NCBI GenBank assembly: GCA_034226945.1
Contig: CP120463.1
Location: 310,001 to 374,000, forward strand
Source: Picochlorum sp. SENEW3
Taxonomy: Eukaryota
Direction: 5' to 3'
DNA length: 64,000 nt
Shown: positions 13,873 through 31,603 of the stretch, piece after piece
Layout: each line of letters opens with the position of its first letter
How positions within the stretch are numbered: position 1 is the first letter of the stretch
The notes under the pieces: model-generated
The model's input: only the letters and a program-made list of their open reading frames with translations
What the model was told of the DNA's origin: nothing
Database searches by the model: none
Program-made: the position numbers and the translations under genes

Positions 13873-14320
13873 TGATGGATTAGGAGGAGGAAGGGAAAGG
13901 AACAAGGATTATGCTACTGTTGACGGATCCAGAAAGCTTTCTTTCTCTCTGGTGTATTGTTGGCAAGAAGGGGGTTTCCTCATGTGCACGTTGTAACTCT
14001 GTAAATATGACAGAAACACTCGCCGAATCTGAGCCATGGCCATTGGCCATGGCCAGCGAGTCTGATCAGTGATTATATAATATCATATATGACCAACTCA
14101 CTGATCAGTGTCACTCATGAGTGACATGGCATGTACCCAAAAACTGCCTGGAATTGAATGTAACAATTCAATTTCATAATTTTCGTCCCTACGAGATATT
14201 ATATTTTCACGTGTCAGTTGTTGTAAATACGATTCAAATCATGTACGGATGAGGACAGACTTCAAGTTGTCCCAACGACCGTCCACGTGACAGAGTCCAG
14301 GAGGGTTTCCACGCTCAAAG

Positions 14321-15736
14321 ATGTCATCTTTTTTACGTATAGTATTTATTTGCGCAATACTATTCGCTGCTGAGCGAATACACGCGCAACCCATGAAGAA
14401 GAGGGAACGCAGGTCATATTCTTGTACCACATTTGTCTCTACAATTTGCGCTATTTCTGTTTCTAAAATAAAGCGGGAACACTGTGAATCGTGCAAATTC
14501 GATGTTCAATCATTGTTCAAGTGTCCAATCGTCGCTGGGGGATATTATGCGTACAGGACAGGCCAATCAGAAGGGGGTGGTTGTAACCAAGGTGCCTTTA
14601 TGGCTCACGGAAGAATTGATCCTCCTCTGTGCGGAGATCGTTGCTGTAGAACTGATCACCATGGAGAATTCAAACTGGTGGGTGCAAGTAATAAGACCAC
14701 TTCGAGAGAAGATATGTACTCATCAAGTTTGATGAGCTCGATGGACAGCAATCCAGCAAAATGGCAGTTCCAGCCCTCCCACAAGAAATGCAGGTATACT
14801 GAAATCAATAGGGGACAAGTGATGCGGCTGTTATCAAAATCAAAGTCAATTGTGGTTATCGGTGATTCGACCATGCGGCAGTTATATTTACGGCTGATTG
14901 CCATGATGAGAGGACAAAAGAGAATGCTTGATCTCCATGTACATACTCACATTCAATACTTTGTCTGCCGAGAAGTCGACTTTTTACGCCTTTCAACGAA
15001 TAGAGGAGATAAAGAAGCATCGCCTAGCGACTCGTGGTTTCTGAAGCACATCATCTCGGCATTCTTTTCCATGGAGATTGGACCGGGCAGGGAAGATGCT
15101 GCCAGAGTGTTATCCGAATGCTCCACCACTCGTGGGGCCAACCAGTCATCATCATTGAGCCAAATAAACTATATGCAAGCACCACTCTATATGGCCCAGG
15201 CTGAGATGCTTCAAACGTACATCAAAAGCCAGAAACAAGCTGATGCAAAGCCAATCTGTGTAGTATCTGTTGGCTTTCGGCAGTCAGGATCTGATGTACC
15301 TGCTGCATATTTACAAACACTAAGGGATGTAGAGGATAAAGTATCAAGAATTGTATATATTGGAGTCCCGACAGTAGACGTGCGCAATCAGGCACAGAAA
15401 AAGGAGCTTGTGAAAAGAAACGAATTCATGAAGGGATGGATTGATGGGCAGACCAATGGAAAGTATCTTTATGTCGATGTTGACGCCCTTGCATCAGCAC
15501 CCAATGCTCCTCGTGGGACAAAAGGATCAAAACATTACCAATGCTGGATAGAGTGGACATCATCCCAGTTTCCATTTGGCACTGACAATCCCTCAGGCAT
15601 GAGCCAATTTCACGGCAAAATTGAAAAAATTCACCCAGATGTTCAGGGTGAATGTGCAGATGAAATGAATAGAAACATATGGCAAATCATTTTGAACAGT
15701 CTGTATAGTAGGTTGAATAACGGAGAAGCATCCTAG
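14321..15736 (+). CDS. Secreted/Golgi SGNH-hydrolase (TBL/PC-esterase-like) protein, possible polysaccharide O-acyltransferase or esterase
   Basis: N-terminal signal or anchor, Cys-rich region, 'WQFQP…CRY' followed by 'IVVIGDSTMRQ' (GDS), and a C-terminal 'HYQC' His motif. Confidence 0.65.
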   Translation: MSSFLRIVFICAILFAAERIHAQPMKKRERRSYSCTTFVSTICAISVSKIKREHCESCKFDVQSLFKCPIVAGGYYAYRTGQSEGGGCNQGAFMAHGRIDPPLCGDRCCRTDHHGEFKLVGASNKTTSREDMYSSSLMSSMDSNPAKWQFQPSHKKCRYTEINRGQVMRLLSKSKSIVVIGDSTMRQLYLRLIAMMRGQKRMLDLHVHTHIQYFVCREVDFLRLSTNRGDKEASPSDSWFLKHIISAFFSMEIGPGREDAARVLSECSTTRGANQSSSLSQINYMQAPLYMAQAEMLQTYIKSQKQADAKPICVVSVGFRQSGSDVPAAYLQTLRDVEDKVSRIVYIGVPTVDVRNQAQKKELVKRNEFMKGWIDGQTNGKYLYVDVDALASAPNAPRGTKGSKHYQCWIEWTSSQFPFGTDNPSGMSQFHGKIEKIHPDVQGECADEMNRNIWQIILNSLYSRLNNGEAS

Positions 15737-15969
15737 GAATGGGTGTCCTGCATGCAATAAGGCAGCATCTCTCTATTGTTGTGCTTTTTTTTAATCATTC
15801 CAATCAAGGTACAAAGGCTCATGAGTACCTCATGGCACCCTCAAAGAAACAGATCTTTATTCCATTGTAAAAACATAATGATCAATCTTTTTGTCCAGTG
15901 ATTTATTTGCATAGTTGCTTGAATTGCCGAACGGTTGGCGAATGACTCTGGCGACACTCTCGTACGATC

Positions 15970-17346
15970 ATGGTCCTGACAAGGCGTCAGGAGGCATTAT
16001 TGAAGAAACAATATAAAATAGTTGATTCAGAAGACGAGCCATCGACTCCTAGAGCTGCTAGACATTCCATCAGTGAGCAGCATACCGGTCTTCGTTCAGC
16101 CTTGAAAAAATATCACACTGATCGCCCCTGGGAGGAAAGAGAACGTAGAATGATGAATAATTTACCTACAGTTGACACGAATAAGCATGTCACGATAGAG
16201 AGTGATAAGAATGTCGTGTTTGAGTTTGAAACGAGTCAAGATGGAGACAGTGACTTGTCCTCTGTGAAACGGCAGTTACACATGGAGAATGACGATGAGG
16301 GCGTTGAATACGGCTCTGTTGAATCTAGATCTAATAAGAAGGCGAGGCAGGTGTTTGGGGATGGTGTCATGGCGTTTCTCATGTTGTCGTTATGGTCAAT
16401 ATCAAGCTCTTGGTTGACAGTTGTAATGCAGACGGTGCTAAGTCAGCCGCGGCTGAGTCTTCCCCTCATGGTGCCAGGGTTGAGTCAGTTGGGTTGTGTA
16501 GTCGTTGTTATTGTACTTGCCAAAATGAGGGTTATCAAGGTGAATCCGATGCCCCCCAGGGCAGAGTATGTGAGGAAGATTGTCCCTCTAGGACTGGCCA
16601 CATGCACGTGCATGTTTTTGGGGAATTATGCGTATATTGGGCTGTCGCTGTCCTTTATTAGTATTCTGAAGGCGTTAACTCCCGCAGTGACTCTGATTTT
16701 GGCGGTCATGTGGGGCATGGAAAAGATGTCTGGCGTTGCATTTGTGTCCACACTCTTGATTGCGTATGGAACGGGGACAGCAACAGTTGATGAGACAAAC
16801 AAAGAGGCCGATTTTCACTGGCCTTCTTTCATTTCATTTACAACGAGTATAATATTTGAGGCATCCAGAGTGGTGTTTGTGTCTAAAGCGTTGAAAGATA
16901 CCAAGTATAGTTCGTTTGATTTGTTGGCAGGGGTTGGTCCTCTGATCTTTGCGGTGTTGTCATCTCTGTCTCTTGTCATGGAATGGGATACGCTTGTGGA
17001 TTTGACCTCGGCTGAGGTTATGTATCTTGCATATATGATGGTGCTGATCGTTTTGCTCAGCTTTTTGGTCAATATCTCCACGTATGCCGCAATTAAATAC
17101 TCTAGCAGTACAACAGTCAAAGTTGTTGGTACGTGTGCAATGTATCGCATGAGTAGTGCAAGAGTGGAATGCTGATATGATTGGTATTGCGATGTAGGTT
17201 GCTTGAAGAATGCCTTGTTGATGTGGTTTGGTATTCTCTTTCAAGGTGATATTGTGTCAAAGACACAATGGCAAGGGTTTGCCCTGTCTACCGGGGGATT
17301 CTTGCTGTATGCATATGCCAGAAAGGAGCAGCAGCAGAAAAAGTAA
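15970..17346 (+). CDS. Nucleotide-sugar/TPT-family transporter, 2 exons
   Basis: Motifs 'GNYAYIGLSLSFISILKALTP' and 'SSTTVKVVG|CLKNAL'. Intron 17129-17197; multiple TM helices. Confidence 0.85.
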
Positions 17347-17519
17347 AGGTTTTTCCTCATTGTATTGTATTTATTTGATCTCGACGTATGTTCTTGGATT
17401 CGTTTACAATAGCAATAATGTGAGATACACGTGGTGTCCATGTCCATGTCATCAGATCAGTCCTCTTTGTTTGTGAGTTTCAACCCACATGATGGGATCT
17501 TTTATATTCAAGAGAATAG

Positions 17520-20082
17520 TCACCCTGTGATCCAATATCGCACTCCATCGTTTGATTTTTGATTCAGTGTCTTGAGAAAGGATTCCCTGATAGTTTCTGA
17601 ACTGTATGTAGTCCAATCAATTGTATTGTTCTTGACTTCTGCATCAGTCCTGCTGATCTCCAGCCATGAAATCATCTTTATATTTGGGAATGCTTTTCTG
17701 GTTGACGTGAATCCATCCAAACTGAATACTTGCTTCCACCAAGCACTTTTGATGTCAAATTCGTGCTGAGAGTTGATCCATCCTTCCTTAATATTGGCCA
17801 CGCATGCCTCTGTTTTCTTGTCATTATCACAAAGATTATACATGGCAGCAGTCTCGGTGATGACCATGGCAATGTCCTTTTCCTCCGAGTACGTTTTGTA
17901 TATACTTGATGTCTCTTCAGTACCGCCTCCAAGAAGAGAGTCATAGAAGTATTCATCGCCAGGTATCTCGTTTTCACCCCATGGGTAGGCCTTGCCCCAC
18001 CAAGACAGTGCGGCACCTATCCAGTCAACATAGAGGTCTCCTGGCCAGTATGGTGAATACATGTCATCTAAATACGTGAATTCACCGTCTCCATTGGTAT
18101 CAAGGAGTTTACAATCACGTGATGTTGATCCTTTGTCACATTGCGGTGCATATTGCCCAGCAGGATATGGATACCCTAGCCCAACAACAGGAGCCCACAT
18201 CATCGTGGCATTCTCAGTGCCTGACCGAAGTGCGTCTGATATCAACCTAAATTTATCGATATATTGAGTCGGTGACTGGCCCCAGGGGAACCATGACCCA
18301 TTCATATCAGGAGCAAATCTCACAATGAAGGTGAGTCCACTCTTCTCATACTTCCGAATGGTGGACACAAAGTCCTTTATTGCGGCCGTGGTAACTGTAC
18401 CCAGGCCTTCGAATGGTTGAACAGTGATCACAATGGGAGGACTGCCGGGTAGATTTGAGAAAATCTTTTGCATTGTTGCCTTGTCAAATTCTGTCAAAGG
18501 AAGGTAGGTGTACAGAGTGTAGCTACATCAAGACATGAGAATGTGCACCTGGTAAGTCCTATATAGATATACATACTAGTCACACACAGACAACTCACCT
18601 TTTTGGAGTATATCCGATTTTGTTGGGGATGGCTTTTGAGGAGAAATTCCAAGATAGCCATTCAACAGAAGTTCCCACCAACACACCATCACTCTCAACC
18701 ACTCTATCGACCCTTGAACCAAACGATTGGGTTTTTTTAGCCTTATCTGTAATCCAATATTCTTTGCCATCTTCTGTTTTCAATGAAATTTGAGCAATGA
18801 ACGCATCTTTCAGGTCCTGATCTGCATATGTGGTCCAATCAATCGTGTTGCCCCCTGCTTCTTGCTCTTCCTTTCTGACATTAAACCATGATATCATTCT
18901 AATATTTGGAAACATTTCTCGAGTTGAAGTAGAGCCTTCAAGGCTGAAAACTTGGTCCCACCAGGTAGATTTGATATCAAATTCAAATTCAGGATTAATC
19001 AAACCATCAGGGATATTGACTTTGCATGCTTCTGTGTCTGGGTCCTTATCGCACAGGTTATATAGTGCACTTGTTTCAGTAATGATCATGGCAATATTCT
19101 TCTTCTCCGAGTATGTGAAGTAAAAGTCTGGGACAGGCTCTCCAGTTTCCTGCTTGATATTGCCCACCAATGTGTCATAAAAAAATTGTGGGGAGGGCAT
19201 CTCATTCTCACCCCAAGGATACACCGTGCCCCACCAGTATAACGATGAGCCTACCCAGTCGACATAATCATCTCCGGGCCAATATGGGGAGAACATATCA
19301 TCTGCGGCGGTCAAATTTCCATCGCGATTAGTGTCAAGCAAGGTGCAATCTGTGGATGTCTCCCCTTGGTTGCATTTCGCCTCATATTTCCCGTACTTAT
19401 ACGGGTAGCCTATGCCTAAATTTGGAGCCCACAGCATGGTCGCATACTGAGTTCCAGCGTGCAAAGCCTCTGAGAAGAGACGGAACTTCTCAATGAATAA
19501 TGTGGGCTTCTGGCACCAAGGATACCAAGACCCATTCATTTCGTGAGCGAAACGAACGATAAATGTCACACCGCGATCTTCCCACTTCTTCAGGATCTTA
19601 ATTGTCTCCTGCACAACGTCCTCAGTCACGGCCTCAAGGCCTTCATATGGTTCTGGAGTTAGAATGACTGTTTGCTTTTTAGCACCCATGGATGGAAAAA
19701 TCTGGGACATCACCCATAAGTCATCTTTAGTGAATGGAATTACCGTAAATAACACATATCTACATATAATATCATGATTATAATCGTTATAACAAACGTC
19801 AATGTAATTAGATGAGTTACAGGAAGCAAGCAAACCAACCACATATCACAGCTCTTGGTTTCATCACAAGATCAAGCATTACTCAACGTACGCTCGTGGA
19901 CCGAACCCAAACACGTCTGGAATATGTCGTGTACTGTAGTTCCAATCACTCCATTCGACAGCTGCTCCAACCTGCACCCCATACTCTCCGACAACCCGCT
20001 CAACCCTTGAGCTGAAAGCAGACACCAAGCGTGCTCGAATACAGAGAAGACACAGCCAGAAAATTGCAACAGGCCTATTCAT
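17520..20082 (-). CDS. Secreted glycoside hydrolase with two tandem GH26-like (beta-mannanase/glucanase) domains, 3 exons
   Basis: Exons 20082-19892, 19759-18599 and 18522-17520 splice in frame; signal peptide present. Domain 1: 'VRFAHEMNGSWYPW', 'YWPGDDYVDWVG', 'IITETSA'. Domain 2: 'VRFAPDMNGSWFPW', 'YWPGDLYVDWIG', 'VITETAA'. Confidence 0.85.
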
Positions 20083-20878
20083 AGGACTCTTTACACCCAA
20101 TATTTAAACATATATTAAAACAATATCGACTGATATTCCCTATATAGGGACACATATATATGTGACAAAAGCGCTACACCGGTAGTTGATATCTGCACGG
20201 TGTTCTGCGAACGTAGCTGTACGGGTGATAAGCACGCCTCACCTTCAATATATTGCTACGGTATTCCTAAAGAACGTATCTTTTGATGAACCATACACAT
20301 CATCGGCGACCGGCGCGAGTAGAAAATCGTCCGGGGGCATAATGCTGAGTCAGACTGGCGTACGCGTATTTGATTGATTCGACATATATATATATGGGCA
20401 TATATGCCGCGGCATCCCACTTGCCCAAGGACATGTGCACGTACAGGATGTCCAGTTGTTTACGTGTATCAGTGATCCGATCCCATGTGTATATGTAATA
20501 TGGGCCCCCCATTCCGTGGATATATCCATGTCCAGGTATGGAGACAGCCTGCTATCAGTCTGATGCCTGCCTGCTGAACTCATGGATTCGAGAGAATGTG
20601 CGACAATTAGATACATGTATCTGTGCTGCTTGTTAAGGATTGGGATCATATGCCTATGCATAATAAGTACAATCGATGGGATGCGTATCCATCGGTGGAT
20701 TTCGCGCTGTAAAGTTTAAAATCATACCATGGTATGATACCCTAGGTCGACTGCTAGGGTTTCCATTGGCTCTGTCAGCAGGGTTCCATCACCCCTCTTG
20801 ATGGCTGCGTCAATACCAATCAGCACTCATTCGAAAAAAATATTGATATTTGATTTAATAAGAATTTTGTAAAAAATC

Positions 20879-21297
20879 ATGGTGAAGCAGAAAGGAGCAT
20901 TACCCCCGACAAAATTGACGCCTTACATGGCAAATGTGTACAGGGCCTTGTTCCTCATTGGCATCATCGGGATCATTGTTGGTTGCTGTGGAATAGCAGT
21001 TCTTCTAGGTATGTTGTTCTTTAATCGTATGCGCACGAGTATCTTCTATTTGCCAAACGTGGACGACTCACATCACGTGACTATGTTGACTTTGCAGATG
21101 TGGAAAATAAAAAGAAATGGTACTCTCATACTCTATTCGCAGAGTATTGGACGTATTTTACTGAGAAGAATGCCATGCTCACGAATATTTGCGTCAATGG
21201 TGGTGTGCTGGCAATTGTCACAAGCTTTTTGAGACTCCAGGCACACTCTCGTGCACTGGCTTTAGAATCAACAGAGGATTCCAAAAAGAAGAAGTAA
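20879..21297 (+). CDS. Small two-TM membrane protein with C-terminal KKKK, 2 exons
   Basis: Intron 21009-21097 joins MVKQKG…IAVLL to DVENKKKW…STEDSKKKK*. The di-lysine C-terminus resembles an ER retrieval signal. Confidence 0.6.
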
Positions 21298-21380
21298 TGT
21301 ATGGTAGTATTACATATTCATGAAAAAATTCTACAACTAGATGGCTCCTAATCACGAGCACACTGTATTACTAGGTTGAC

Positions 21381-23255
21381 CTAAACATCCACAGTTGAAA
21401 GCTCATGTTGAGCTTGTTTCAACATGTCCAACTTGGCCGTCAATGTTTGGCGTCTCTTGGCAACAGCATCATCCTCTCCCAACATTCTCTTCAGCTGGAC
21501 TTCCTGCTGACCTGCCACAGTTGCCTGAAGTTTCTCCAACAAGTGCTCTTTTGATGGAATCACCATGCAATGGACAATTGCTTTTGGCACAGACTGGATC
21601 ATCTGAGTGCAGATTTCCCTCACATACCCAGAAACTTGATTGATAATGCGCTTATAGTGCCTTTCCTCTGGGCTTCCCTCTGGCTCTTCAGTGACTGGTC
21701 GACCATCTAATGTATACATGACCTTTCCATCAGGCATTCTGCCCATCTGAATGGTTCTGAAATATTCTGCTGTGATGTAGTTGCGCTCCATCTCCACCAT
21801 GATATTCACCATTTTGCGAGTCTCTTCTCTGAATGCATCCAAGGCAGTGTACGCAGATGTTACAATTTGTCTCTTCAGCTCTGGGTATCGTCTCAAGGCA
21901 TTGAGCTCGTCAGAATTGGCAATATTATCCACCATTCGCCTCAACAACACAAACACTTCTTCCACAGACTTTTCGGTCGGCTCTTTCAAATATCCAAGAG
22001 CTTCTTCCAACAAGCGCCTGTATCCTGCCTCTGGAGCTACCAAATGGGGCTGGATACCATCTGCTTCTTCAATCACACGCTTCACATGATTCACATCCAA
22101 CATCTTCTTGAATGGTTGCTTCTCGACAGCGTCTGGAAGACGCTTTTCAAACACAGTCAAAACCAATTCACCTCCACCTTTGCCTCCATCGATCAACTTC
22201 GCAAATGCCGTCTCAAACTTCCTGGCAATTGTCAAAACTGCATGAACCATCTCACCTCGGCCAGTGGCTGCAGGTCCACCAAGACCTTCCAGCTCTTTGT
22301 TCAAGTCCATGATAGATTTGTTCAAAAATCCAGAAATATTTGGCAACTGTCTCCTCACAGATGCAATCAATTTCTCAGACAAATCACAGGACAAGTAGTC
22401 TGTTCCGACATTTTCCATTGACCTATACTCATCTTTTCCCTTGAAGAACTCCATCTCCTTTGCACGAGCTCGATTCATATCCATCTTGCTATCAATATCC
22501 CTTTGCCCTCTGTTCACAACACCAATCCACCCATTCCTCAGCACATAGGAGTTCCCATTCAACACATCCGCACAATTGGTCCCAGGATCCATAATATCAA
22601 TCTTGGTCAATACACCAATCGTACGTTCTCCAGTTGGATCCACCTCACGTGCCAACCGCAGTGCATCTGACGTTGCTAAATCTGCATTGGCAGGTGTCAC
22701 AGCAAGAATAATGACATTCTCATGCTTCACATAATCCCTCGCCATAGATTCCAACTCCTGAACAATACTCTTCGGCTGACCATCGATGGCCACCTTTGTA
22801 ATACCAGGCATATCTACCATGGACAAGGCAGGCAAGTGAGGGGACACGATACGGAGTGTCATTGGAACTGGGGACACAATGGTCCCTCTCTTCTGTGTAT
22901 GCCTCCTCGTCTCCTCCTCAATCTCCTTCCGTATCTCTTCAAAATCATAAAACTTCTGCCCAGGCAAATGTCCAAACTCTCCATACTCTTGCGCATCCTT
23001 GTCCGTCGCTGTCTCCAACTGAAGCTCCAGTGGCCTTCGTGTCACAATACCAGTTCCACGGGGAAGGAAATCCCTCCCCACCACAGCCTCAAGCACTGAC
23101 GATTTTCCTGAACTCTGCCCTCCAACAACAACAATTTTGGGTAATTGCCTTGCCAAAGAAGGAAGAGCCCCGCCCTTTTCATTTCCAACTTGGGTATCCC
23201 CTGCCAAGGCAGCAATTTGAGACACCCTATTCACAGCTTTCAATACCGAGTCCAT
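21381..23255 (-). CDS. DRP1: Dynamin-related protein 1 (phragmoplastin-like DRP1)
   Basis: GGQSSGKSS, LPRGTGIVTRRP, DMPG and TKID motifs; middle domain 'EADGIQPHLVAPE'; GED 'VPKAIVHCMV'; no PH domain. Confidence 0.95.
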   Translation of the reverse strand: MDSVLKAVNRVSQIAALAGDTQVGNEKGGALPSLARQLPKIVVVGGQSSGKSSVLEAVVGRDFLPRGTGIVTRRPLELQLETATDKDAQEYGEFGHLPGQKFYDFEEIRKEIEEETRRHTQKRGTIVSPVPMTLRIVSPHLPALSMVDMPGITKVAIDGQPKSIVQELESMARDYVKHENVIILAVTPANADLATSDALRLAREVDPTGERTIGVLTKIDIMDPGTNCADVLNGNSYVLRNGWIGVVNRGQRDIDSKMDMNRARAKEMEFFKGKDEYRSMENVGTDYLSCDLSEKLIASVRRQLPNISGFLNKSIMDLNKELEGLGGPAATGRGEMVHAVLTIARKFETAFAKLIDGGKGGGELVLTVFEKRLPDAVEKQPFKKMLDVNHVKRVIEEADGIQPHLVAPEAGYRRLLEEALGYLKEPTEKSVEEVFVLLRRMVDNIANSDELNALRRYPELKRQIVTSAYTALDAFREETRKMVNIMVEMERNYITAEYFRTIQMGRMPDGKVMYTLDGRPVTEEPEGSPEERHYKRIINQVSGYVREICTQMIQSVPKAIVHCMVIPSKEHLLEKLQATVAGQQEVQLKRMLGEDDAVAKRRQTLTAKLDMLKQAQHELSTVDV

Positions 23256-23707
23256 TCTTCCTCGACTGAAATACTTTCTAAAGTGATACTAGGAGTTTTA
23301 CTTGTATTCTATATACGCGGATAGGTGTCTTTGTAACCTCGTCCTATCGATCGTTCGATCACGTGCGTGGGACAAATTCGTCGCTCTGAATCCCAGGTAC
23401 AGATCTTCTTCCTTTACCTTTTAGTTTTCAGAAATATACGTTGACTCTTCCTGTACGTCGAGCGAATACTATCTTAAAGAATGGATTTGGAACAAGGACT
23501 GAACAGGTGCGGGTTTCTTTCATGGCATGAAGACGACAAAACCACGCGTTTATTGTCGCATCTCTACCTTCTGCACAGGGTCCTATCAAATGGTCTTTCC
23601 AATCGGTGTACTGTTTTGATGTAAGTACACCCTGAAATTGGTGGTCTATAGCACCTCATCACTCATCAGAGAATACTTCATATCATTTTGATTGAGTGGA
23701 TCTGTTG

Positions 23708-24559
23708 ATGAAGGATGGTATTTGGGCAAGGGAGGGACTAAAGGTCGTCCTGCTGCCTCCTTCTTGTTCTGGTGGGAGGCCAAGAGAGTCTCACAGCAGC
23801 CGTTTCATACGGCATTGGTGCCATGCCGATTTGAAAAGAAACGGAAATGTGTTTCTACGTGCTAGACGGATAGAAGGATGGCCTGATGCACCATGTGAGG
23901 ACTCTGCTGGTGGAGTGGACTATGGAGTACAGACCAGTAGGCTCCAGCGTCGGGCATTCATTGCCATGTCTTTGTCACTTGGAATGCTTGTCTCAGAGAA
24001 TGTGCATGCGGATGATGGCGTGCGCCGTCTGACGAGAGAACAGCGACTAGCACTTCAAAATGTTGCTGGTGCTCCAAAACAGCGTGGTGGTACCCAGGAA
24101 CCGGTAATAAAGAGGGTGCCTGCAGCGTCTGGGAGGATGCAGGCAGCTCTGCAATTATTACAAAGCGCATCTGATGACCAGGCGATGGGGGAATATCAAA
24201 GTGCTCTGGAAAAGTACAAGAGTTTGGTTTTGGAATACCCAGAATTTGAAGGGCTTGGTGAGCGAGGGAGAGTGGGACAGGCTCTGATGGAATATCAAGT
24301 CGGTACGGTGGATGCAGCTATACTGCATTTAGAAGATGAAGAGGTGGCGTTGCGAGGGTTGGCAGAGGTGCATGCCGCTCTTGCGAGTGTCCTGTATGTG
24401 GAGAGGCCAGAGAGACTGGCGTTTGCTGAACTTCAGTGGGATATCGCTAGTGAGTTTGACTCCCGATACTCATCCGTTGCGTGGGTGAAGAAGGAAAAGA
24501 AATGGCCACCAAGGATGCTTGAAGCTCTGGAATCTTTTCTTACATTGAAGAGTGGATAA
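23708..24559 (+). CDS. TPR-repeat protein, probably thylakoid-lumen targeted
   Basis: Helical TPR-like repeats, conserved-looking C-terminus 'W…WPPRMLEALESFL', and a twin-Arg 'RRAFIAMSLSLG…VHA' Tat-like signal. Confidence 0.7.
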   Translation: MKDGIWAREGLKVVLLPPSCSGGRPRESHSSRFIRHWCHADLKRNGNVFLRARRIEGWPDAPCEDSAGGVDYGVQTSRLQRRAFIAMSLSLGMLVSENVHADDGVRRLTREQRLALQNVAGAPKQRGGTQEPVIKRVPAASGRMQAALQLLQSASDDQAMGEYQSALEKYKSLVLEYPEFEGLGERGRVGQALMEYQVGTVDAAILHLEDEEVALRGLAEVHAALASVLYVERPERLAFAELQWDIASEFDSRYSSVAWVKKEKKWPPRMLEALESFLTLKSG

Positions 24560-24639
24560 ATCATCAATTATCAGACTGCAACTTTTACGAATTAATTAAT
24601 TTGTGTGGTTGAAATTTTGAAACCTGACATACCTGTGTA

Positions 24640-27600
24640 TCATTCGAAAAAATCTTCATTATCAAATAATGTTGCGAACAGAATTCCTCCAACAAACAGT
24701 CCTATGAGAATGAAGCCGTTTACGACAAAAAACATAATGGTCTTTGCTGGACTATGCTTGTCATCAAAGTTTGGACGAGCGGCAATGGTGTGCTCATACT
24801 CGTATGCTGGAACCACTGGCATGATGAAGCTTCCAGACCTCATAGAGGTTAATTTAACAATGGTTTGCGATGGTAATGATGGTATTGACGTGGTTCTCAT
24901 GGATCCATAAACAATGCTTCTAGTCTTTGTGTTTGAGACGGGTTTGATTTCTACTGAGCCAGCTTCGGGATCAATATGCATGGAAACCATGCGTGTATCG
25001 ATTTCGCTACCCCTTGATGGTTTGGGCTCGGGCAATACTGTTGCTGCAGAGCATAGTGATGGCAATGGTGGTTTATTGGTAGGTATGAAAATAGATGTAA
25101 GACATGGCACTACTATTCACGTACATGAGAAGGGCCCAATGTGGGATAAAGATTCGATTGATCTGCTGGGCAATGAGACTCGTCCAATACTTGATAAACC
25201 AGCGTGGTGTCTGGTCTGGCTTCCTTGCTGCACAAGCATGTGGAAAATATATTCAGTAAAAGCTTTCTCTACATGTGAACCATGAAACGTACCACGGAAC
25301 TGTGTAGAAAAGAGAAGGACTCTTCTTTGCTGGGCTTTTCAAGTCCTTTTCCTCCACTTTTTCCGTGTCTCGATTGAGATTCCAGTGAGTCAAGCTCCTT
25401 GTCGTACTCTTCCTCTGGATGCTCCATCATTGCAAATGGTGACATTTCAAAGAGATCGTCATCCTCAAAATGTGGACTGAATGTGGCATGCACTTTTGAT
25501 AATGATTCGGCTGCGACTTGCATTGCATTTTGAGCAGTGACTTTTGGTGTTTGCTTCTCTTTTGCTCCTTTACTCGACATCGTATCTGATCTTCTCAAGG
25601 AGAAGAGTCTTGAGAATTTCTTGACCAGCCGGTTATTCTCGTCCACTTCAAAAGCATTGGGATTGTAGAAGGGATCCCACGCGATGCGCCACCCTTGTTC
25701 TGTTTCACGTCGAGGTAGGAGTGTTTCGATAGGTGGCCACATGTAACATATCATGACCAAGCCCCAGCCTGCCACAGAAATATAAATGACACACTCTGCA
25801 GCATTGAATGAGCCCTTTGCTGCAAACACAATAAAATGGACGAGGCCTCCAATGTACACTAGAATGTACGCAATATACGGCCAAATACAAAGAAAATTTA
25901 CCCAAAACCCTTCGCTGTCGCGAGTCTTTCGGGTGACTTTAAACTGAATGCTAATGTATATCTGCAAGAAGGAGAACAATGAGACCAGTGTGAGATATTG
26001 TGAGACCCTAATACGACCATGTATATATCTTAATCAATACCTTGAACACTCTTAATATGGACCAAATCAAATACTTCAAAGTTGCTCTTATGTTGTTGTA
26101 TATCAGCCAAATAGAAAGTTGTGAGCCTCGCCACAGTTCCAAAGATTCACCTAGGCAACCTCTGTAGAGGACCAATATGGCGATGCGATTGGCAAAGTAC
26201 ATGCAACCAAAGTATATCACAAACTCCCACAAGCGACTGACCAGAATGGGAGCAAATCCTGAGTACAAATACACCAAGGGTGATATGGCAAACAAAGCAT
26301 AGGGATACGCCATGAAATGATAGGCGCTGGCTTCAAAAAAGAGGCAAGATTGAGGAAATGTCAGCCCAGCTTTTAACAGAGGATTGTCAAGTGTTAATAT
26401 TTGCAGGGATCCAAGAGCCCAGCGATAGCGTTGTGCGAACACGGCCGAGATGGTAGTTGGGGCCATGCCATGGACCAGCCTTTCCTCAACAAATAAGGAT
26501 GTAAAGCCAGAGGCTAAAAACTCCATTGCTGTGAAGTAATCCTCTGTTATGCTACCAAAACTCTGTCCTCCAATACTTAAAAGAGCTTTCCTATTAAAAA
26601 TAGCACCTACATTGATACAAATATCAGCTTAAGCCATAGGAGGAATCGCTCATAGCAATCAGTTGTGACAACCAACCTGTTCCACAGCAGGGAGATGCAC
26701 CAATGCCATCCCTGCCGCTCAACATTTTAGAGTAGAAGAATCGAGCACAGTTGACGAAGGGATCAGAGCGATGGACATTCCAAAAGTCTTGTGGGGTCTG
26801 TAATAAGGCAGCAAATCTCTTCTTCCTCCAAGAGACCATGCCTCCTTCAGTCATGTTTGTATCCTCATTCTGCCTATACATATGACCGACAGTATGTGCC
26901 AAAAAATTAGGATGAACAACCATATCCGCGTCTAGCGTCAAAATATAATCAGCATCAATAGAGGATTCCTTGAAAAGCCCATTATTAATGTTGCCAGATT
27001 TAGCATGGTGGTCAATACCCTTCTTCCTTGTTCTGGTCACATACTTAAGAGTGACTCTCCTATCAACATAGCGCATCTGAGACCGCAAATCTTTGACCAT
27101 TTTGGCCATCTCTGGTCTATTACCATCATCCAACACCATGACGCACAATTTTTCTCCAGGGTAGTCCATATTGATGGCAGCAATGGTAGTTGGCTCGACA
27201 ACATCACGGTCCTCTGTATATGTGACAATAAAGACATCTACTTTGGGAAACAGTTCATCCCTCGGAAGCATCTCATGGATATCACGCTTGGGTCTCAAAG
27301 CTGGCTGCCACATGCTCATAAAGAAGATGTGACCCATGACACCATTGGCAAATTCACAGAGCCAAAAGATGGCACTGTAAATGTAACCCAGCCCAAACTG
27401 CAGTGATCGTAGCGCACGCCATACTATATACACTTCAAATACTGCTAATGATAATATGCTTGTCAAACGACTCAGTCTCAGCCTCTTTGGCTTCTCAGTG
27501 CCAGGTGTGCCAAACCCATCAAATGAAGGAAGCATCCATGCATCATCTGTAATCTTTTCAAAATATGTTTCATCATCCTTGTCAAAAAGCAGCCAAACGT

Positions 27601-28240
27601 TCTCACTCTTAATATATACTTTGTTTATCAAATCATCCTTGCTAGGAATGCCGGTGACTTTGCCATCTTCGCTGAAATCTGAGAGAAAGGACACTGTGGC
27701 ATGGCAACCATTGTCAGATGCTAGTTTCAGGGCTGTATTCCCAAATGCATCTTCAGCCAAGACATTCGCTCCGAATGTTATCAAAATTTTGACAGATAGC
27801 AAATTTCCACGTGTTGAAGCCAACATGAGGGGCGTAAGTCCCCAGCCATCTTCACGAACAGCTTCTATATCAGCACCATGCTGACACAACCAAAGGACTG
27901 CCCCAGCCTCGCCTTGCGCACTTGCTGCATGTAGAGCTGTAAATCCTTTTACACTCGAGTTGACGTCAAATGCTGTACCAGCGGCATCTTTGATTGCTTC
28001 CATCACAGCAACATTCCCGCTAGCAGCAGCATATCTTAACCTTCCCTTCAGCACGCTGGACATCTTCCCACGTGCCCGAATCCATCGAAAGGCGATGATC
28101 GAGACAATCAAGAACAAGACGAAGCTCACAGAAGACACAAGAAGCCATACTCCATTGATATCAACGAGGCCTTGTGTTCGCACTGACACTCCACTGAGCG
28201 CCCCACCGTCAGTTTGCGCATACGGCGTGTCCTCAGCCAT
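24640..28240 (-). CDS. Processive GT2 cellulose-synthase-like (BcsA/CesA-type) glycosyltransferase fused to N-terminal ankyrin repeats, 5 exons
   Basis: Exons 28240-26677, 26606-26041, 25961-25293, 25227-25125 and about 25045-24640. Ankyrin 'GFTALHAAS/GLTPLMLAS/GNTALKLAS'. GT2 motifs DVFIVTYTE, LDDG, HAKSGN, DAD, QTPQ, CGTG, TED, QRYRW and FKVTRK. Confidence 0.88.
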
Positions 28241-28614
28241 CCGGTGAACCAGAACTCACACTACCCAGTTTTTACCTAAAATACTAGATACTTTAATACC
28301 ATTGTTATTAATGAATTTTATATCCGAGAGGATGTCCCGTCGTCCGAGGCATCGTACCGAGCAGTACCTTGTAACTGACACGTCATCCGCGCCCCTTGTC
28401 GACCCAGCGGGATCTGCAGTTTCTCCCCAGTTTCCTAGGGAAGACGGCTCGGTTTCCGCTAGTCATTCAAAGGCACACATCTGGGCTTCTTCTGCCATCA
28501 TCTGCGTGTCTCTGTAACTAGAAGTGGGCGATGCATCCAGCATTGGACGGCAGTCATGATTTGGTGTTCAAACGTTGCAGCAATTGTTACATTCAATGTG
28601 TATGATTCGTTGAT

Positions 28615-29334
28615 TTATTTTGGTGCTTGCGGACGAGATTTCAAAAATTCGAGCATCTTGGATCCACCAGAGATGTCAACCTTGCCCAAACTTTCTTCGA
28701 CAAGAACTTTCAGAATAACACCATCCTCCAAGGCCACAGAATATCTCAATGACGCAGGCCCAGAGCCATTGGAATCAACTTCCATCCCAAGAATTCGAGT
28801 GAATCCACCGTTGGGATCCGCTGCTAAAGTGATATCACTTCCAATTCCATTCTCTTTGGCCCACGTGTCAACCTCTGCTGCGTCTCCTCTGGAAACACAG
28901 ATGATTTGTGTCACTCCTTGTCTCCTCATGCCCTCCAACTCCTTGAGATATCCTGGCACGTGTGTTTTAGTGCACACATCTCCTCGATCAGGAACCCCAA
29001 ACAGAACGGTGAGTTGATCCTGTACCATCAGCAATAAAATAAAGTCAAAGAATATCCTAGATTCACCAACAAGTACCGACGACCCTACCTTGAAGAGCTC
29101 AGACAGTGGAACACTTGTACCTCCAACTACTAATTTGATGTTGCCTGCTGCTCCTAATTTCAAGTCTCTTCTTCTATTAAGACCTATATTGCATGCAATC
29201 TGCGACAAATCCGAATCAATGTGCCCTTCAGGGACATCGTAGAACTTTTTACTGCCAGCAGCTGCTTCCGCAGAGAAGGCTCGTTGTAAAACACGACAAT
29301 GGCCCTGGCGCGCAATTCGCTGTAATAATGCCAT
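28615..29334 (-). CDS. Type II peroxiredoxin-like (Redoxin fold) protein, mitochondrial presequence, atypical active site
   Basis: 'VLFGVPDRGDVCTKTHVPGY…ICVS…ADPNGGFTRILG…SLRYSVALEDG' follows the Prx5 pattern. Probable in-frame 69-nt intron at 29088-29020. Confidence 0.8.
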   Translation of the reverse strand: MALLQRIARQGHCRVLQRAFSAEAAAGSKKFYDVPEGHIDSDLSQIACNIGLNRRRDLKLGAAGNIKLVVGGTSVPLSELFKVGSSVLVGESRIFFDFILLLMVQDQLTVLFGVPDRGDVCTKTHVPGYLKELEGMRRQGVTQIICVSRGDAAEVDTWAKENGIGSDITLAADPNGGFTRILGMEVDSNGSGPASLRYSVALEDGVILKVLVEESLGKVDISGGSKMLEFLKSRPQAPK

Positions 29335-29513
29335 TGTGACTATTAATCTATGTTATATCTGGGGGGAGAGAGCCAATCGTTGGAATTTTTCATCCAATCT
29401 GAGGATTGATTGTAGTAGTACGTCCCTGCTGTTGGAGGGATCCCATGGTAGAATTACAGTACCACATATGTGGTACTGCGAAAGTGGTTGGAAAAGAAAA
29501 AGGTGGTTACATA

Positions 29514-31180
29514 TTATTTCTCCTGGGGTATAAGAACATTCAGCAAATATGTATGCAATTCATCTCTATGAAGCATTGGAAGCATTCCATCCGCAATGAT
29601 TTTCGATGCCTGCTCGCATATGCTGGATTGGCAATCCACCATGTACTTTTTCACCGCTGTTGTCACACACGCCAGCATGATGGCCTCCTCATCCGAAGGA
29701 GCTGCTGCTTCTGTCTGCTGAGCAATGTCGTTGAACAAAGCTTTTTCTGCCTCCAAGCGCTGTTCATCATCATCGTCCTCGTCTTCTATGGTGACCCCGT
29801 GAGATTTGAGTGTCTTGGTGCGGACTGGCTTTTTCATCTTCTTCTGACTGTTTTCCTCTTCATGTTTCTTCTCTTTTGAATCTTCCTGCGTACCATCCTC
29901 CTCGAATATTTGAGTTGAAATTTTTCTTTCCGCAGTGCCTTCTGAAGGTGTTGTAGAGTTACCTTTGATGGACTCGCCAACAATGGCCTTTCCAATCATA
30001 TCCAGCCACTCTGATTTGCTCGACATGGTGGGTGCTCTCAATGTCAGTGATACCATGTCTGACTTTGTCTTTCCTCCATGAAAGAATGCTTTATCATTTG
30101 TAGTATGCCTTGTTGAATTTTCTCCTGAAAAGACGACTCTAAATGTCAATTCATTTGCTCCATCTTCGTGCACATCTGGAAAGACTGAGCATCCAACCAA
30201 GGATGCTGCACCCCTGGCAGGTTGCTCTTCAGGATGTGCAAAATACCACAGCCGCTTCTTCTCCGCTGATAATACCACCCATCTTCTCTGCCATCGTCCA
30301 AATCGATTCTTTTTCTCCAACCATCCCATGTAGAATTGTGCGCAGGCCAACGGCTCTGCAGCAACACTCCGAGCCTCAAGGTTGACAGCGTGAGAGGACA
30401 AGGAGTCCCTCTTCATCGCCACAATATCCGCGTGCTGCAGCTTGAGATTCTTCATGGATATCTGAATCATATTCTGGTAATGGTTAATCAGACGCTCTGT
30501 CTGTTTTCGAGACTCTTCTTCGAGCAAATCGTCGATTGCCCCTCTCAAATTGCGAAACCTCTGAGGGTCTGGAAATTCAACCTCTGCATGCAAGTTTCTG
30601 CTCAGCTGATCCCACGTTCTATCCTTCCAGTCATCAATACTTTCGTATGCTTGTTCTTCCATCAACTGTTTCAATCCTTCATTGCTGGGCGCTTTCAACA
30701 GCTCACATTCTTCCATGGCCAGTTCAGCAGCTTTGCGAGTAATACCATGCACATCATCCAATACTTGCTTCAGTGGGGCATAGTACAATGTAATAAGCTC
30801 TCGAATCATTCCTCGAACACCTTCCTCTGGCGCATGGATCCATGTACGCCATCCATAGCATCGTTTGAAGATTCTGTGGGCAGAGTCCATGTGGAGGTGT
30901 GACTGCATGTCCACCTGCTGAAGATCCCTGTGGATTCGTTGGTGATGAATGGCAGTCGCAATGTCGGACTTGAGAGAAGAGTTACACGCGTCTGAGAACA
31001 GATCAATAAATTCCTCGGCGCATTCGACGACCTACGTCACACACATGTCTGGTTAGTACACCATCACCTCCACACGAATCAATCATGTCGTCATACCATT
31101 GCTGTATACGCTTTGTATTCCTCATCTTCACTGGAATCTTTCTTCTTTGAATCACTCTTAGATGCGTGCTTCCCAATCAT
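29514..31180 (-). CDS. PH-domain protein with dynamin middle/GED-like helical regions, no GTPase domain, 2 exons
   Basis: Exon 31180 (or 31387)-31097, intron 31096-31032, exon 31031-29514. PH 'GWLEKKNRFGRWQRRWVVL…LWYF…KSEWLDMI'. 'CYGWRTWIHAPEEGVRGMI' aligns by eye to DRP1 'ADGIQPHLVAPEAGYRRLL'. Confidence 0.7.
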
Positions 31181-31603
31181 ATCGACCGCGTTTCCTTTCT
31201 CGAAGCCTCTGCTGTTGCTGGTTTGGTTGAGGTCAGACCACACAGTCTGTTCTGGACAATATACCGCAATGCTCGTGCTCCTCACTGCTATGAATGCCGG
31301 AACGAACAACCGTATATTCTTTTGATACAACTGTTGTACACTCTTGTGAATTCTAAAGGTCGTACACGGCCGGGTTCGGGCACCCATGCGTCGGGTTTGT
31401 TACACCAAGGGCCGCATACGCTGTACAGGGCCCAGGGCGCCTTCTTCACTACAGAGGACGGATGCACTTCAAAATGCAGCCACTCCTACACCTCCATATG
31501 GACATGGTACCCATTAAATCATTTCCAAGTATCCAAAAGTATCACAATGACTCCACATATCTGTATATAGAATATGCCAGCGAATGTGAGATAGAGACCG
31601 CAC

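Follow-up and report, generated by a model that had tools for sequence, protein, structure and literature searches.

The region 14321..31180 of the window (the whole 64,000-nucleotide stretch of Picochlorum sp. SENEW3 DNA analyzed here) is best explained as ordinary gene-dense chromosome in which a BcsA-type processive GT2 synthase carrying ankyrin repeats and a secreted GH26-like glycanase form a functional β-glucan pair, an explanation to which we give a probability of about 0.5. In our best reading the two genes are loosely linked, and the genes for the DRP1-type dynamin, the small membrane protein, the protein with a twin-arginine-like leader, the peroxiredoxin, and the PH-domain protein are bystanders.

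Gene content of the region

The region is Picochlorum nuclear DNA, and the gene content named in a first-pass annotation, which had proposed an operon-like wall-biogenesis cluster for an acetylated β-glycan such as mannan, proved largely real (Table 1).

Table 1. Genes of the region, with positions counted from the first nucleotide of the window
Feature	Position	Strand	Details
TBL/PC-esterase-fold protein	14321..15736	+	471 aa, single exon, hydrophobic N-terminus
TPT-family (nucleotide-sugar-transporter-like) membrane protein	15970..17346	+	435 aa; exons 15970-17127, 17197-17346
Secreted two-domain GH26-like glycanase	17520..20082	-	~784 aa; exons ~19892-20082, ~18599-19759, 17520-18522
Small two-TM protein	20876..~21295	+	109 aa, KKKK C-terminus; joint 21006/21096 in RNA contigs
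DRP1-type dynamin	21381..23255	-	624 aa; Pfam Dynamin_N, Dynamin_M, GED
Protein with twin-arginine-like leader (read from sequence)	23708..24559	+	283 aa
Ankyrin-repeat + BcsA-type processive GT2 synthase	24640..28240	-	1101 aa; exons 26677-28240, 26041-26606, 25293-25961, 25125-25227, 24640-25043
Redoxin-type peroxiredoxin	28615..29334	-	Pfam Redoxin; joint 29018/29088
PH-domain protein	29514..31387	-	two exons, joint 31029/31095 in RNA contigs

The SGNH/TBL-like identity proposed for the first gene is confirmed at the level of fold. The sole Pfam match of its product, NXPE4_C, is sub-threshold (18.1 bits, threshold 27), and the only Foldseek match to its AlphaFold model (pLDDT 85.6) at E ≤ 0.001 is the xylan O-acetyltransferase XOAT1/TBL29 (6cci, E 4.1e-4), which is also the best structural match by VIA, with a Z of 16.4 over 228 aligned residues compared with 10.7 for the next match and no more than that for other SGNH proteins. 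Like XOAT1/TBL29, the protein has a GDS motif (G181-D182-S183, invariant in the 25-member family alignment) and a conserved His (H405, at least 90% conserved), but it is only 11% identical, it falls short of the Pfam PC-Esterase model, and its DxxH motif lacks an evident Asp. PC-Esterase clusters lie at 0.90-0.93 to it in the Atlas, which is a lead only. The transporter gene, on the same strand with 234 bases between the two, has its splice joint 17127/17197 in RNA contigs X3 and X5 and encodes a protein that clears the Pfam TPT threshold (48.3 bits against 30); the nucleotide-sugar type assigned to it comes from its Atlas neighbors, which are nucleotide-sugar and GDP-mannose transporter clusters, and is likewise only a lead. 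The TBL-fold protein and this transporter could serve the same glycan as the GT2 enzyme, or another.

The small membrane protein has two hydrophobic stretches and the KKKK end; it has no Pfam match, and it is probably a bystander. The DRP1 label also holds, with Arabidopsis DRP1A (3t34) as the closest solved relative (E 3e-102), and we regard this gene as a neighbor of the wall genes, probably a bystander. For the 283-aa protein the label "TPR" is unconfirmed, since it matches no Pfam family at E ≤ 0.01; it is probably a plastid-lumen protein unrelated to the wall genes. The peroxiredoxin, identified as such by its Redoxin match, is unrelated to them; RNA contigs remove 69 in-frame bases that are retained in the public 239-aa model, a sequence with an exact match in the protein collection. 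What had been called a dynamin-like PH protein does contain a PH domain (38.2 bits), but its Dynamin_M match is sub-threshold (21 bits against a cut-off of 28.5), it has no GTPase domain, and it shows no tblastn similarity to the neighboring DRP1; the plural "dynamins" was therefore an overstatement, a wall role for them is unsupported, and this gene too is a bystander.

The synthase and the glycanase

RNA contigs contain the splice joints of all four introns of the GT2 gene, which has five exons rather than three. The product had been described as an ankyrin-GT2 processive synthase, and this description is borne out by Pfam matches to Ank and Cellulose_synt (31 and 35.3 bits, where 24.7 is required) and by the BcsA-type motifs DDG, DAD, TED, QRYRW, and FKVTRK in the translation. 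Its closest solved relatives are BcsA structures (5ej1 and 4hg6, E ~2e-20), with plant CesA at 2e-5. The ankyrin-GT2 family is present in Nannochloris, Micractinium, Chlorella, and Klebsormidium, and GH26-like proteins of these genera are absent from the best 120 of 663 matches; among the matches listed, the synthase thus occurs in genera without the GH26-like hydrolase, and therefore does not need it. A comparable description is that of CslP and CslO in the Zygnema genome preprint, green-algal GT2s with bacterial BcsA affinity that are absent from land plants and are proposed as cellulose or mixed-linkage-glucan synthases (doi 10.1101/2023.01.31.526407). The window GT2 resembles them in being green-algal and BcsA-affine; the preprint's passages on them name neither ankyrin repeats nor a GH26 partner.

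The GH26-like gene is on the same strand as the GT2 gene, ~4.6 kb away with three unrelated genes between, and RNA contigs from a related strain show that both are transcribed and spliced. Its intron at 18522/18599 is confirmed by these contigs; its 5' exon, which encodes the hydrophobic N-terminus, was placed by homology rather than RNA. The annotated "secreted double GH26" is indeed one gene with two GH26-like domains, of which the first scores above the Pfam GH26 threshold of 20.2, at 27.8, and the second lies just under it (19.9). Domain 1 retains the HE...E catalytic pattern, with E212 invariant and H56/E57 nearly invariant in an alignment of GH26-like domains, and in domain 2 PD replaces HE, which puts an Asp at the position expected for the acid/base Glu.

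A comparator for domain 1 is CtLic26A, the GH26 β-1,3-1,4-glucanase domain of Clostridium thermocellum Endoglucanase H (2bv9, 2vi0, and others), which is its best match in both sequence and fold and whose acid/base motif H108-E109 aligns with its HE. CtLic26A supplies all of the top seven Foldseek matches to the domain 1 model, six lichenase entries and one fusion chain of Endoglucanase H (6zpl_C), with E from 1.5e-9 to 3.5e-8, compared with 3.4e-6 for the CjMan26A mannanase and 6.5e-6 for a β-1,3-xylanase. By sequence and model, domain 1 is thus nearest to this lichenase, ahead of mannanases, a rank that does not in itself give substrate specificity. The algal domain differs from CtLic26A in being 16-17% identical (TM 0.45-0.49 by query and 0.58-0.64 by target), in being ~100 residues longer, and in containing a Cys-rich insert that is common to other algal members.

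Bacterial gene order and co-occurrence

Two scans for relatives of the GH26-like domain yielded 160 bacterial loci that were kept, and in 12 of these a BcsA-like GT2, recognized at E < 1e-30 by an HMM of the algal proteins, lies directly beside the GH26 relative and shares its strand, the stop-to-stop ORFs overlapping or lying no more than 1.4 kb apart; the other 148 have no such neighbor. Of the 78 loci whose flanks both reach at least 2.5 kb, 10 show the association, as do 8 of the 68 clusters into which the GH26 sequences fall at 70% identity. In the GH26 tree the linked loci are spread over several separate clades, and their GT2s belong to two deep clades. In the three genomes checked, the neighboring GT2 is the genome's only PF03552 match.

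Co-occurrence was examined in two evenly drawn samples, 151 genomes of one class and 151 of another phylum. PF03552 is present in 5/5 GH26-positive genomes of the class compared with 13/146 others, and in 2/2 of the other phylum compared with 17/149; with the two center genomes left out, both samples together give 5/5 compared with 30/295 (Fisher p 1.7e-5). Among these five newly sampled GH26-positive genomes, GT2 and GH26 are adjacent and co-oriented in three (G034, G077, and G078) and unlinked in two. The G034 genome is flagged as unpublished, and the class sample without it gives 3/3 (p 0.001). Gene order and co-occurrence in bacteria therefore provide independent evidence of a functional link for this one pair, the GT2 and GH26-like genes; the operon-like cluster, the mannan, and the dynamin role of the first-pass annotation are not supported.

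In both the GH26 and the GT2 tree the algal clade is separate from all the bacteria sampled and not beside the bacterial partner clades, and against the algal HMM unlinked actinobacterial GT2s reach scores (285 bits) as high as those of linked ones (202-293), so there is no sign that the two genes were transferred jointly.

Alternative explanations

The strongest competing explanation, which we consider unlikely though well short of negligible, is pure chance adjacency at a density of about one gene per 1.8 kb, with the GH26-like enzyme acting on some other glycan (for example, glucans from food or bacteria, or a wall layer that is unrelated). Five unrelated genes are mixed in among the wall-type genes, the rest of the window consists of housekeeping genes, many windows were scanned in the first pass, and if 1.5-4% of genes are assumed to be wall genes, a rough binomial estimate is 0.04-1.9 such nine-gene runs per 7000 genes. 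Nor is the pair physically linked in the two relatives that could be checked: among the matches listed, Scenedesmus sp. NREL 46B-D3 has its GT2 on a 582,327-base contig and two GH26-like genes on one of 127,289 bases, and the Tetradesmus obliquus genes OEZ86_004623 and OEZ86_001141 likewise occupy separate contigs (5.1 and 8.8 Mb), which argues against the operon-like cluster. Against chance, the bacterial operons and co-occurrence independently predict this very pair, and the chance of finding a GH26 gene within four genes of a GT2, assuming 3-8 GT2 paralogues per 7000 genes, is 0.3-0.9%. For most members of the region chance adjacency, a caveat already raised in the first-pass annotation, is still live.

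It is rather improbable that the TBL-like, transporter, GH26-like, and GT2 genes, perhaps with DRP1, are a true cluster kept together for one acetylated β-glycan at the division plane. All four enzyme and transporter types are confirmed within seven consecutive genes, the closely spaced TBL-fold and transporter genes would fit such a unit, and single bacterial loci offer partial parallels, with an EamA/DMT transporter immediately after the GH26 gene in L032 and an AT3-SGNH acyltransferase ~2 kb off in L002. However, by tblastn the TBL-like, TPT, DRP1, and other window proteins have relatives in 0/80 genome loci and 0/80 metagenome loci. Moreover, BcsA and CesA draw their substrate from the cytosol, so a BcsA-type synthase needs no lumenal sugar-nucleotide transporter, and TBL enzymes act in the Golgi lumen. 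An acetylated β-mannan pathway, in which the GT2 would make mannan and the GH26 domains would be mannanases, is very improbable, for while β-mannanases make up the majority of characterized GH26 enzymes (CAZy) and the transporter lies close to clusters of GDP-mannose transporters in the Atlas (a lead only), the GT2 is BcsA/CesA-like rather than CslA-like, the GH26-like domain ranks in the lichenase branch, and the bacterial partners are Cellulose_synt-family enzymes, several of them with PilZ domains.

Related systems and the proposed role of the pair

The β-glucan pair that we favor resembles the E. coli bcsABZC operon, in which the gene for a processive GT2 with TED and QxxRW motifs neighbors that for BcsZ, a secreted GH8 endo-glycanase that acts on the polymer the GT2 makes. 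Several of the bacterial GH26-adjacent GT2s also carry PilZ, and one clade of them is sister to E. coli BcsA. In the present case the hydrolase is GH26-like rather than GH8, there is no BcsB or BcsC beside the GT2 in the annotated bacterial GH26 loci, the algal GT2 has N-terminal ankyrin repeats and lacks PilZ, and three unrelated genes separate the algal pair. A eukaryotic parallel is plant CesA, a β-glucan synthase that depends on a separate endoglucanase, KORRIGAN, though the hydrolase there is GH9 and the window GT2 is far nearer to BcsA than to plant CesA; the CesA and KORRIGAN genes are not known to be neighbors.

If the two algal genes function together as their bacterial counterparts do, the ankyrin-tagged synthase would polymerize β-glucan from a cytosolic UDP-sugar and extrude it via its own membrane channel, and the secreted two-domain GH26-like endo-glycanase would cut or trim that polymer outside the membrane. 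Such trimming may take place during synthesis, as with BcsZ for BcsA and KORRIGAN for CesA, or at the release of daughter cells.

Gene content of the window and corrected gene models

The window is Picochlorum nuclear DNA, with about one gene per 1.8 kb and short GT..AG introns, and comparison with viral contigs gave a single weak match at 24% identity. The exact 624-aa DRP1 sequence shares a 90%-identity cluster with a protein of Picochlorum sp. BPE23, the 283-aa protein clusters with a Picochlorum renovo model, and the Na+/H+ exchanger (NHX) clusters with BPE23 proteins. Gene models were corrected with Pfam and with spliced, RNA-like contigs from sequencing runs X3 and X5 of a related strain (95-99% identity), while the contigs of runs X1 and X2 behave as DNA.

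Features of the window with corrected gene models (window positions)
Feature	Position	Strand	Joints	Product or remark
TPT-family ORF	9626-10420	+		E 8.7e-85
TBL-like gene	14321-15736	+		471 aa
TPT-family transporter	15970-17346	+	17127/17197	435 aa; second exon added
GH26-like gene	17520-20082	-	18522/18599 (RNA contigs)	~784 aa; two domains
GH26-like domain 2	17520-18522	-		PDMNG at acid/base motif
DRP1	21381-23255	-		624 aa
Leader-bearing protein	23708-24559	+		283 aa
Ankyrin-GT2 synthase	24640-28240	-	~26604/26675, 25961/26041, 25227/25293, 25043/25125 (RNA contigs)	1101 aa; five exons
Peroxiredoxin	28615-29334	-	29018/29088 (RNA contigs)	239 aa if unspliced
PH-domain gene	29514-31387	-	31029/31095	upstream exon added
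FG-repeat ORF	32997-35804	+		
Nup96-domain ORF	35927-38059	+		
NHX	46306-48090			

The first-pass annotation had suggested that 14321..31180 may hold an operon-like wall cluster, with gene types of acetylated beta-glycan (for instance mannan) pathways, and had named chance adjacency as the alternative. The other genes of the window are of housekeeping type (succinyl-CoA ligase, Ycf66, DEAD helicase, deaminase, Nup96, CK2-beta, NHX, a PDR-type ABC transporter and a tRNA synthetase). A second TPT-family ORF lies 5.5 kb upstream of the candidate cluster, from which it had been left out; it is a much stronger match to the family and probably a plastid phosphate translocator. The long FG-repeat ORF and the Nup96-domain ORF that follows it look like a Nup98-96 precursor with an intron or frame change between them.

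A BcsA-like ankyrin synthase

The GT2 gene has five exons rather than three and ends in a hydrophobic C-terminus. Its spliced translation carries VLDDG, LDADM, SITEDY, QRYRW and FKVTRK, which correspond in sequence to the complete D, DxD, TED, QxxRW and FxVTxK set of BcsA/CesA-type processive GT2 enzymes. The Pfam Cellulose_synt family matches it at 31 and 35.3 bits (cut-off 24.7), and together with the ankyrin repeats these features bear out its first description as an ankyrin-GT2 processive synthase. Among solved relatives bacterial BcsA is by far the better match (~2e-20), with plant CesA at 2e-5. No PilZ domain was found in the algal protein, the C-terminal exons of which match no Pfam family; it has ankyrin repeats at the N-terminus instead and is, as judged from its sequence, BcsA-like and not a BcsA orthologue. 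Ankyrin-GT2 relatives are listed from Nannochloris, Picochlorum, Micractinium, Chlorella, Scenedesmus, Tetradesmus, Klebsormidium and Chlorokybus, and the ankyrin-GT2 proteins form one clade with support of 100. BcsA-like green-algal GT2s are named 'CslP' and 'CslO' in a preprint on Zygnema genomes (doi 10.1101/2023.01.31.526407).

In other trebouxiophytes local duplication of ankyrin-GT2 genes seems to have taken place, since the locus tags of paralogues are only 3-6 apart: three Nannochloris 'desiccata' proteins (P0011, P0012 and P0277; g07741, g07735 and g07738) have tags 3-6 apart, and two from Micractinium tetrahymenae (P0272 and P0279; ABPG75_001267 and 001261) are 6 apart.

A two-domain GH26-like glycanase

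The two GH26-like ORFs belong to a single gene, to which homology to relatives adds a 5' exon beginning at 20082, with a first intron that lacks RNA confirmation; this exon opens with a signal-like hydrophobic segment. Against Pfam PF02156 (gathering score 20.2) domain 1 reaches 27.8 bits, with the profile covered over ~65 positions only, and domain 2 falls just under the gathering score at 19.9. The double GH26 protein of the first-pass annotation, described there as secreted, is thus upheld as one two-domain gene with a hydrophobic N-terminus and a first domain above the Pfam cut-off. The model of domain 1 (pLDDT 75.2, pTM 0.77) has GH26 structures as its best Foldseek matches (E 1.5e-9 to 1e-5) and places the domain in the (beta/alpha)8 barrel, clan GH-A fold of CAZy GH26. 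The HEMNG motif of domain 1 aligns with H108-E109 of the lichenase CtLic26A, in which E109 is the catalytic acid/base Glu, and a second Glu at the nucleophile position, E212, is invariant in 17/17 rows of the domain alignment. In domain 2 the motif reads PDMNG, without the acid/base Glu, whereas HE is found in domain 1 and nearly all relatives. Because PD replaces HE, with PE in the P. renovo orthologue, domain 2 may be impaired or altered. Between the two Picochlorum sequences the difference amounts to a Glu-to-Asp change, at strain level, in a presumed catalytic residue.

With regard to substrate, the suggestion of mannan is not borne out. The best solved sequence relative of the GH26-like domain is CtLic26A, at a weak E of 0.0075, and the top seven Foldseek matches of the domain 1 model are all CtLic26A chains (E 1.5e-9 to 3.5e-8), with the CjMan26A mannanase (3.4e-6) and a beta-1,3-xylanase (6.5e-6) both behind. 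As the domain is nearest to a lichenase and a BcsA-type synthase lies close by, beta-glucan would be a better guess than mannan, although the fold ranking does not fix the substrate. Relatives of the domain number 663 at E<=0.001, and among the best 120 Picochlorum-like and sphaeroplealean algae come first, followed by bacteria at ~40-45% identity.

GT2 and GH26-like genes in bacteria

Around GH26-like relatives we fetched 80 loci from bacterial genomes and 80 from metagenomes, with flanks of up to 10 kb; the metagenome loci include a single algal one (1030 bases) and are otherwise bacterial. Since ORF picking was often wrong-stranded in high-GC loci, GT2 neighbours were counted from six-frame searches with an HMM of the algal GT2 catalytic region, a match at E<1e-30 being taken as strong. 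A strong BcsA-like GT2 adjoins the GH26-like gene in 3/80 genome loci and 9/80 metagenome loci, in all 12 cases on the same strand and with stop-to-stop ORFs that overlap or lie <=1.4 kb apart. A GT2 neighbour is present in 10/78 of the loci with >=2.5 kb on both sides, and in 8/68 GH26 clusters at 70% identity. In each of three genomes checked (1.5-5.1 Mb) the GT2 neighbour is the sole Cellulose_synt match, for which the chance of adjoining the GH26-like gene is ~0.1-0.4% per genome. The adjacent cases are spread over several separate GH26 clades, and their GT2s fall into two deep clades, of which one has E. coli BcsA as its sister.

By Pfam annotation of the neighbours little is conserved beyond the two genes, no third conserved gene was found in the bacterial modules, and no BcsB was seen beside them; the 160 loci gave no relative of any other window protein. 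PilZ occurs on or just after the GT2 in five loci, and a STAS protein lies between the GT2 and the GH26-like gene in three. A sugar nucleotidyl-transferase (NTP-transferase), a pyruvyl transferase and a hexapeptide transferase are each found at one locus, together with several unknowns, and at a further locus (L024) the GH26-like gene comes after a BcsS gene. Two corynebacterial-type loci (L058 and L077) have another kind of GT2, with Glyco_trans_2_3 only, beside tandem GH26-like genes and were left out of the 12.

In these two loci the GH26-like genes come after the GT2. Two GH26-like genes per locus are also seen in other actinobacteria, in tandem at L002, L008 and L011 and ~4 kb apart at L009, and the paired genes of several actinobacteria echo the algal two-domain gene.

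Co-occurrence was counted in 151 evenly drawn genomes from the class of G004 and in 151 genomes from the phylum of G003. In the class sample the GH26-like gene is present in 5/151 genomes and PF03552 in 18/151; in the phylum sample the counts are 2/151 and 19/151. All GH26-positive genomes (5/5 and 2/2) have both. The two centre genomes, G003 and G004, were chosen as known carriers of both genes and were excluded from the pooled test, in which PF03552 accompanies the GH26-like gene in 5/5 genomes against 30/295 of those without it (Fisher p 1.7e-5, uncorrected for kinship and with genome completeness unreported). In three of these five (G034, G077 and G078) the two genes are adjacent and co-oriented, and the remaining two, G060 and G189, carry them at separate places. 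Leaving out G034, which is flagged as unpublished, the class sample gives 3/3 (p 0.001).

Joint transfer of an operon from bacteria to the alga is not indicated, because the algal clades, with support of 84 for GH26 and 100 for GT2, both lie outside all sampled bacteria, rather than nested among the bacterial partners, and because unlinked actinobacterial GT2s score the same against the algal HMM (285 bits) as linked ones.

TBL-fold protein, transporter and other neighbours

The TBL-like protein matches Pfam only through NXPE4_C, at 18.1 bits (cut-off 27), and does not reach the gathering score of PF13839. Its family comprises 97 matches at E<=0.001 (HMMER, 1.84 billion representatives). Among 25 aligned members G181-D182-S183 is invariant (25/25) and H405 at least 90% conserved; NXPE4_C is matched by 6/25 and PC-Esterase by 1/25, all weakly. 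At the DxxH position the window reads G-S-K-H, with no Asp three residues before H405. The model (pLDDT 85.6) has XOAT1, to our knowledge the only solved TBL protein, as its sole Foldseek match at E<=0.001 (4.1e-4), and the VIA comparison aligned 228 residues (model residues 101-464) at Z 16.4 and rmsd 4.1, ahead of an SGNH protein at Z 10.7. The predicted fold therefore resembles that of XOAT1 including the N-terminal lobe and, with the invariant GDS, the SGNH/TBL-like label stands at the level of fold. Runs X3 and X5 give almost no cover over 14101-15903, which may reflect strain divergence or silence. In addition, X1 and X2 contigs leave the window sequence at 14474, within the gene (~14474-15263), which suggests that its structure differs between strains.

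The transporter had been called nucleotide-sugar type; its membership of the TPT family is secured by a score above the Pfam cut-off, and the nucleotide-sugar assignment is a lead from its neighbours in the Atlas. One of the two proposed dynamins was confirmed: the DRP1 protein has the GTPase, middle and GED domains by Pfam, without PH or PRD, and its best match is AtDRP1A (3t34, 3e-102), narrowly ahead of dynamin-1 (7e-98). The PH-domain protein does not qualify, as its gene, even with the upstream exon, has neither room for nor trace of a GTPase domain. It includes a sub-threshold stretch resembling the dynamin middle region, and may derive from a DRP2-type dynamin or be what is left of one. 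The 283-aa protein matches no Pfam family; its leader, RRAF...VHA, looks like a twin-arginine signal. In the peroxiredoxin gene 69 in-frame bases are spliced out, and since the unspliced translation is an exact copy of a sequence in public protein collections, the public 239-aa model probably retains the intron.

Linkage in the alga and alternative readings

The first-pass gene list was largely right and its interpretation holds only in part, the best-supported unit being the GT2 and GH26-like genes, which we regard as a functional pair with a probability of about one half. The BcsA-type ankyrin-GT2 would make and export a beta-glucan, and the secreted GH26-like glycanase would cut it. Such a pair would parallel BcsA/BcsZ (GH8) and CesA/KORRIGAN (GH9) in joining a synthase to a glycanase, differing in its use of a GH26-like hydrolase.

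That the two genes lie near each other purely by chance is possible, though we consider it rather improbable. The idea draws on other algae, where the conserved linkage expected of an operon-like cluster was not found: the listed GT2 and GH26-like genes lie on separate contigs, of 582,327 and 127,289 bases, respectively, in Scenedesmus sp. NREL 46B-D3 and of 5.1 and 8.8 Mb in Tetradesmus obliquus (OEZ86_004623 and OEZ86_001141), in a comparison that scored 30 GT2 proteins of 943-2690 aa and could miss shorter paralogues. Synteny with P. renovo and BPE23 is present by locus-tag spacing and was not counted as conserved linkage because the kinship is too close. Nannochloris, Micractinium, Chlorella and Klebsormidium list ankyrin-GT2 with no GH26-like gene among the best 120 of 663 relatives, so the synthase can work without the hydrolase. 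Against chance stand the bacterial associations and the odds of the arrangement itself, since, with 3-8 GT2 paralogues assumed, a GH26 gene would fall <=4 genes from one of them with a chance of 0.3-0.9%.

A true multi-gene wall cluster is very doubtful. Under assumed gene numbers and wall-gene fractions, a rough binomial estimate puts comparable runs at 0.04-1.9 per genome. The dynamin, PH protein, small membrane protein, peroxiredoxin and leader-bearing protein are neighbours only, and the closeness of most of the 'cluster' is what a compact genome ordinarily brings about. For the TBL-fold protein and the transporter the wall- or secretory-type label is justified, and any tie of theirs to the pair would be putative.

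For the proposed functional pair of GT2 and GH26-like genes, a wider reading is conceivable, if unlikely as a whole: an unrecognised beta-glucan module of a BcsA-like synthase and a lichenase-related GH26-like glycanase, a third solution beside BcsA/BcsZ and CesA/KORRIGAN, that would form an operon in Actinomycetota, Chloroflexota and Myxococcota, have both parts in chlorophytes and still be linked in Picochlorum, where with the TBL-fold acetyltransferase and the NST-type transporter it would produce an O-acetylated, possibly mixed-linkage, beta-glucan layer of the trilaminar wall. A GH26 hydrolase as partner of a cellulose synthase was not found in the literature searched, at the level of listings, and searches on Picochlorum walls, on ankyrin with cellulose synthase and on GH26 operons returned nothing on this pair. 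The HGT table for Picochlorum costavermella has GT2-like genes and GH5, and no GH26.

If the pair works as proposed, one wall glucan would gain a candidate for its synthase and another for the enzyme that naturally cuts the wall. In pico-green algae such as Picochlorum the wall polymers are ill defined, and Picochlorum strains are under development for biomass, where wall breakage and digestibility matter. The pair would also point to a GH26 subfamily, as yet uncharacterised, that accompanies cellulose-synthase-like genes in bacteria of the soil.
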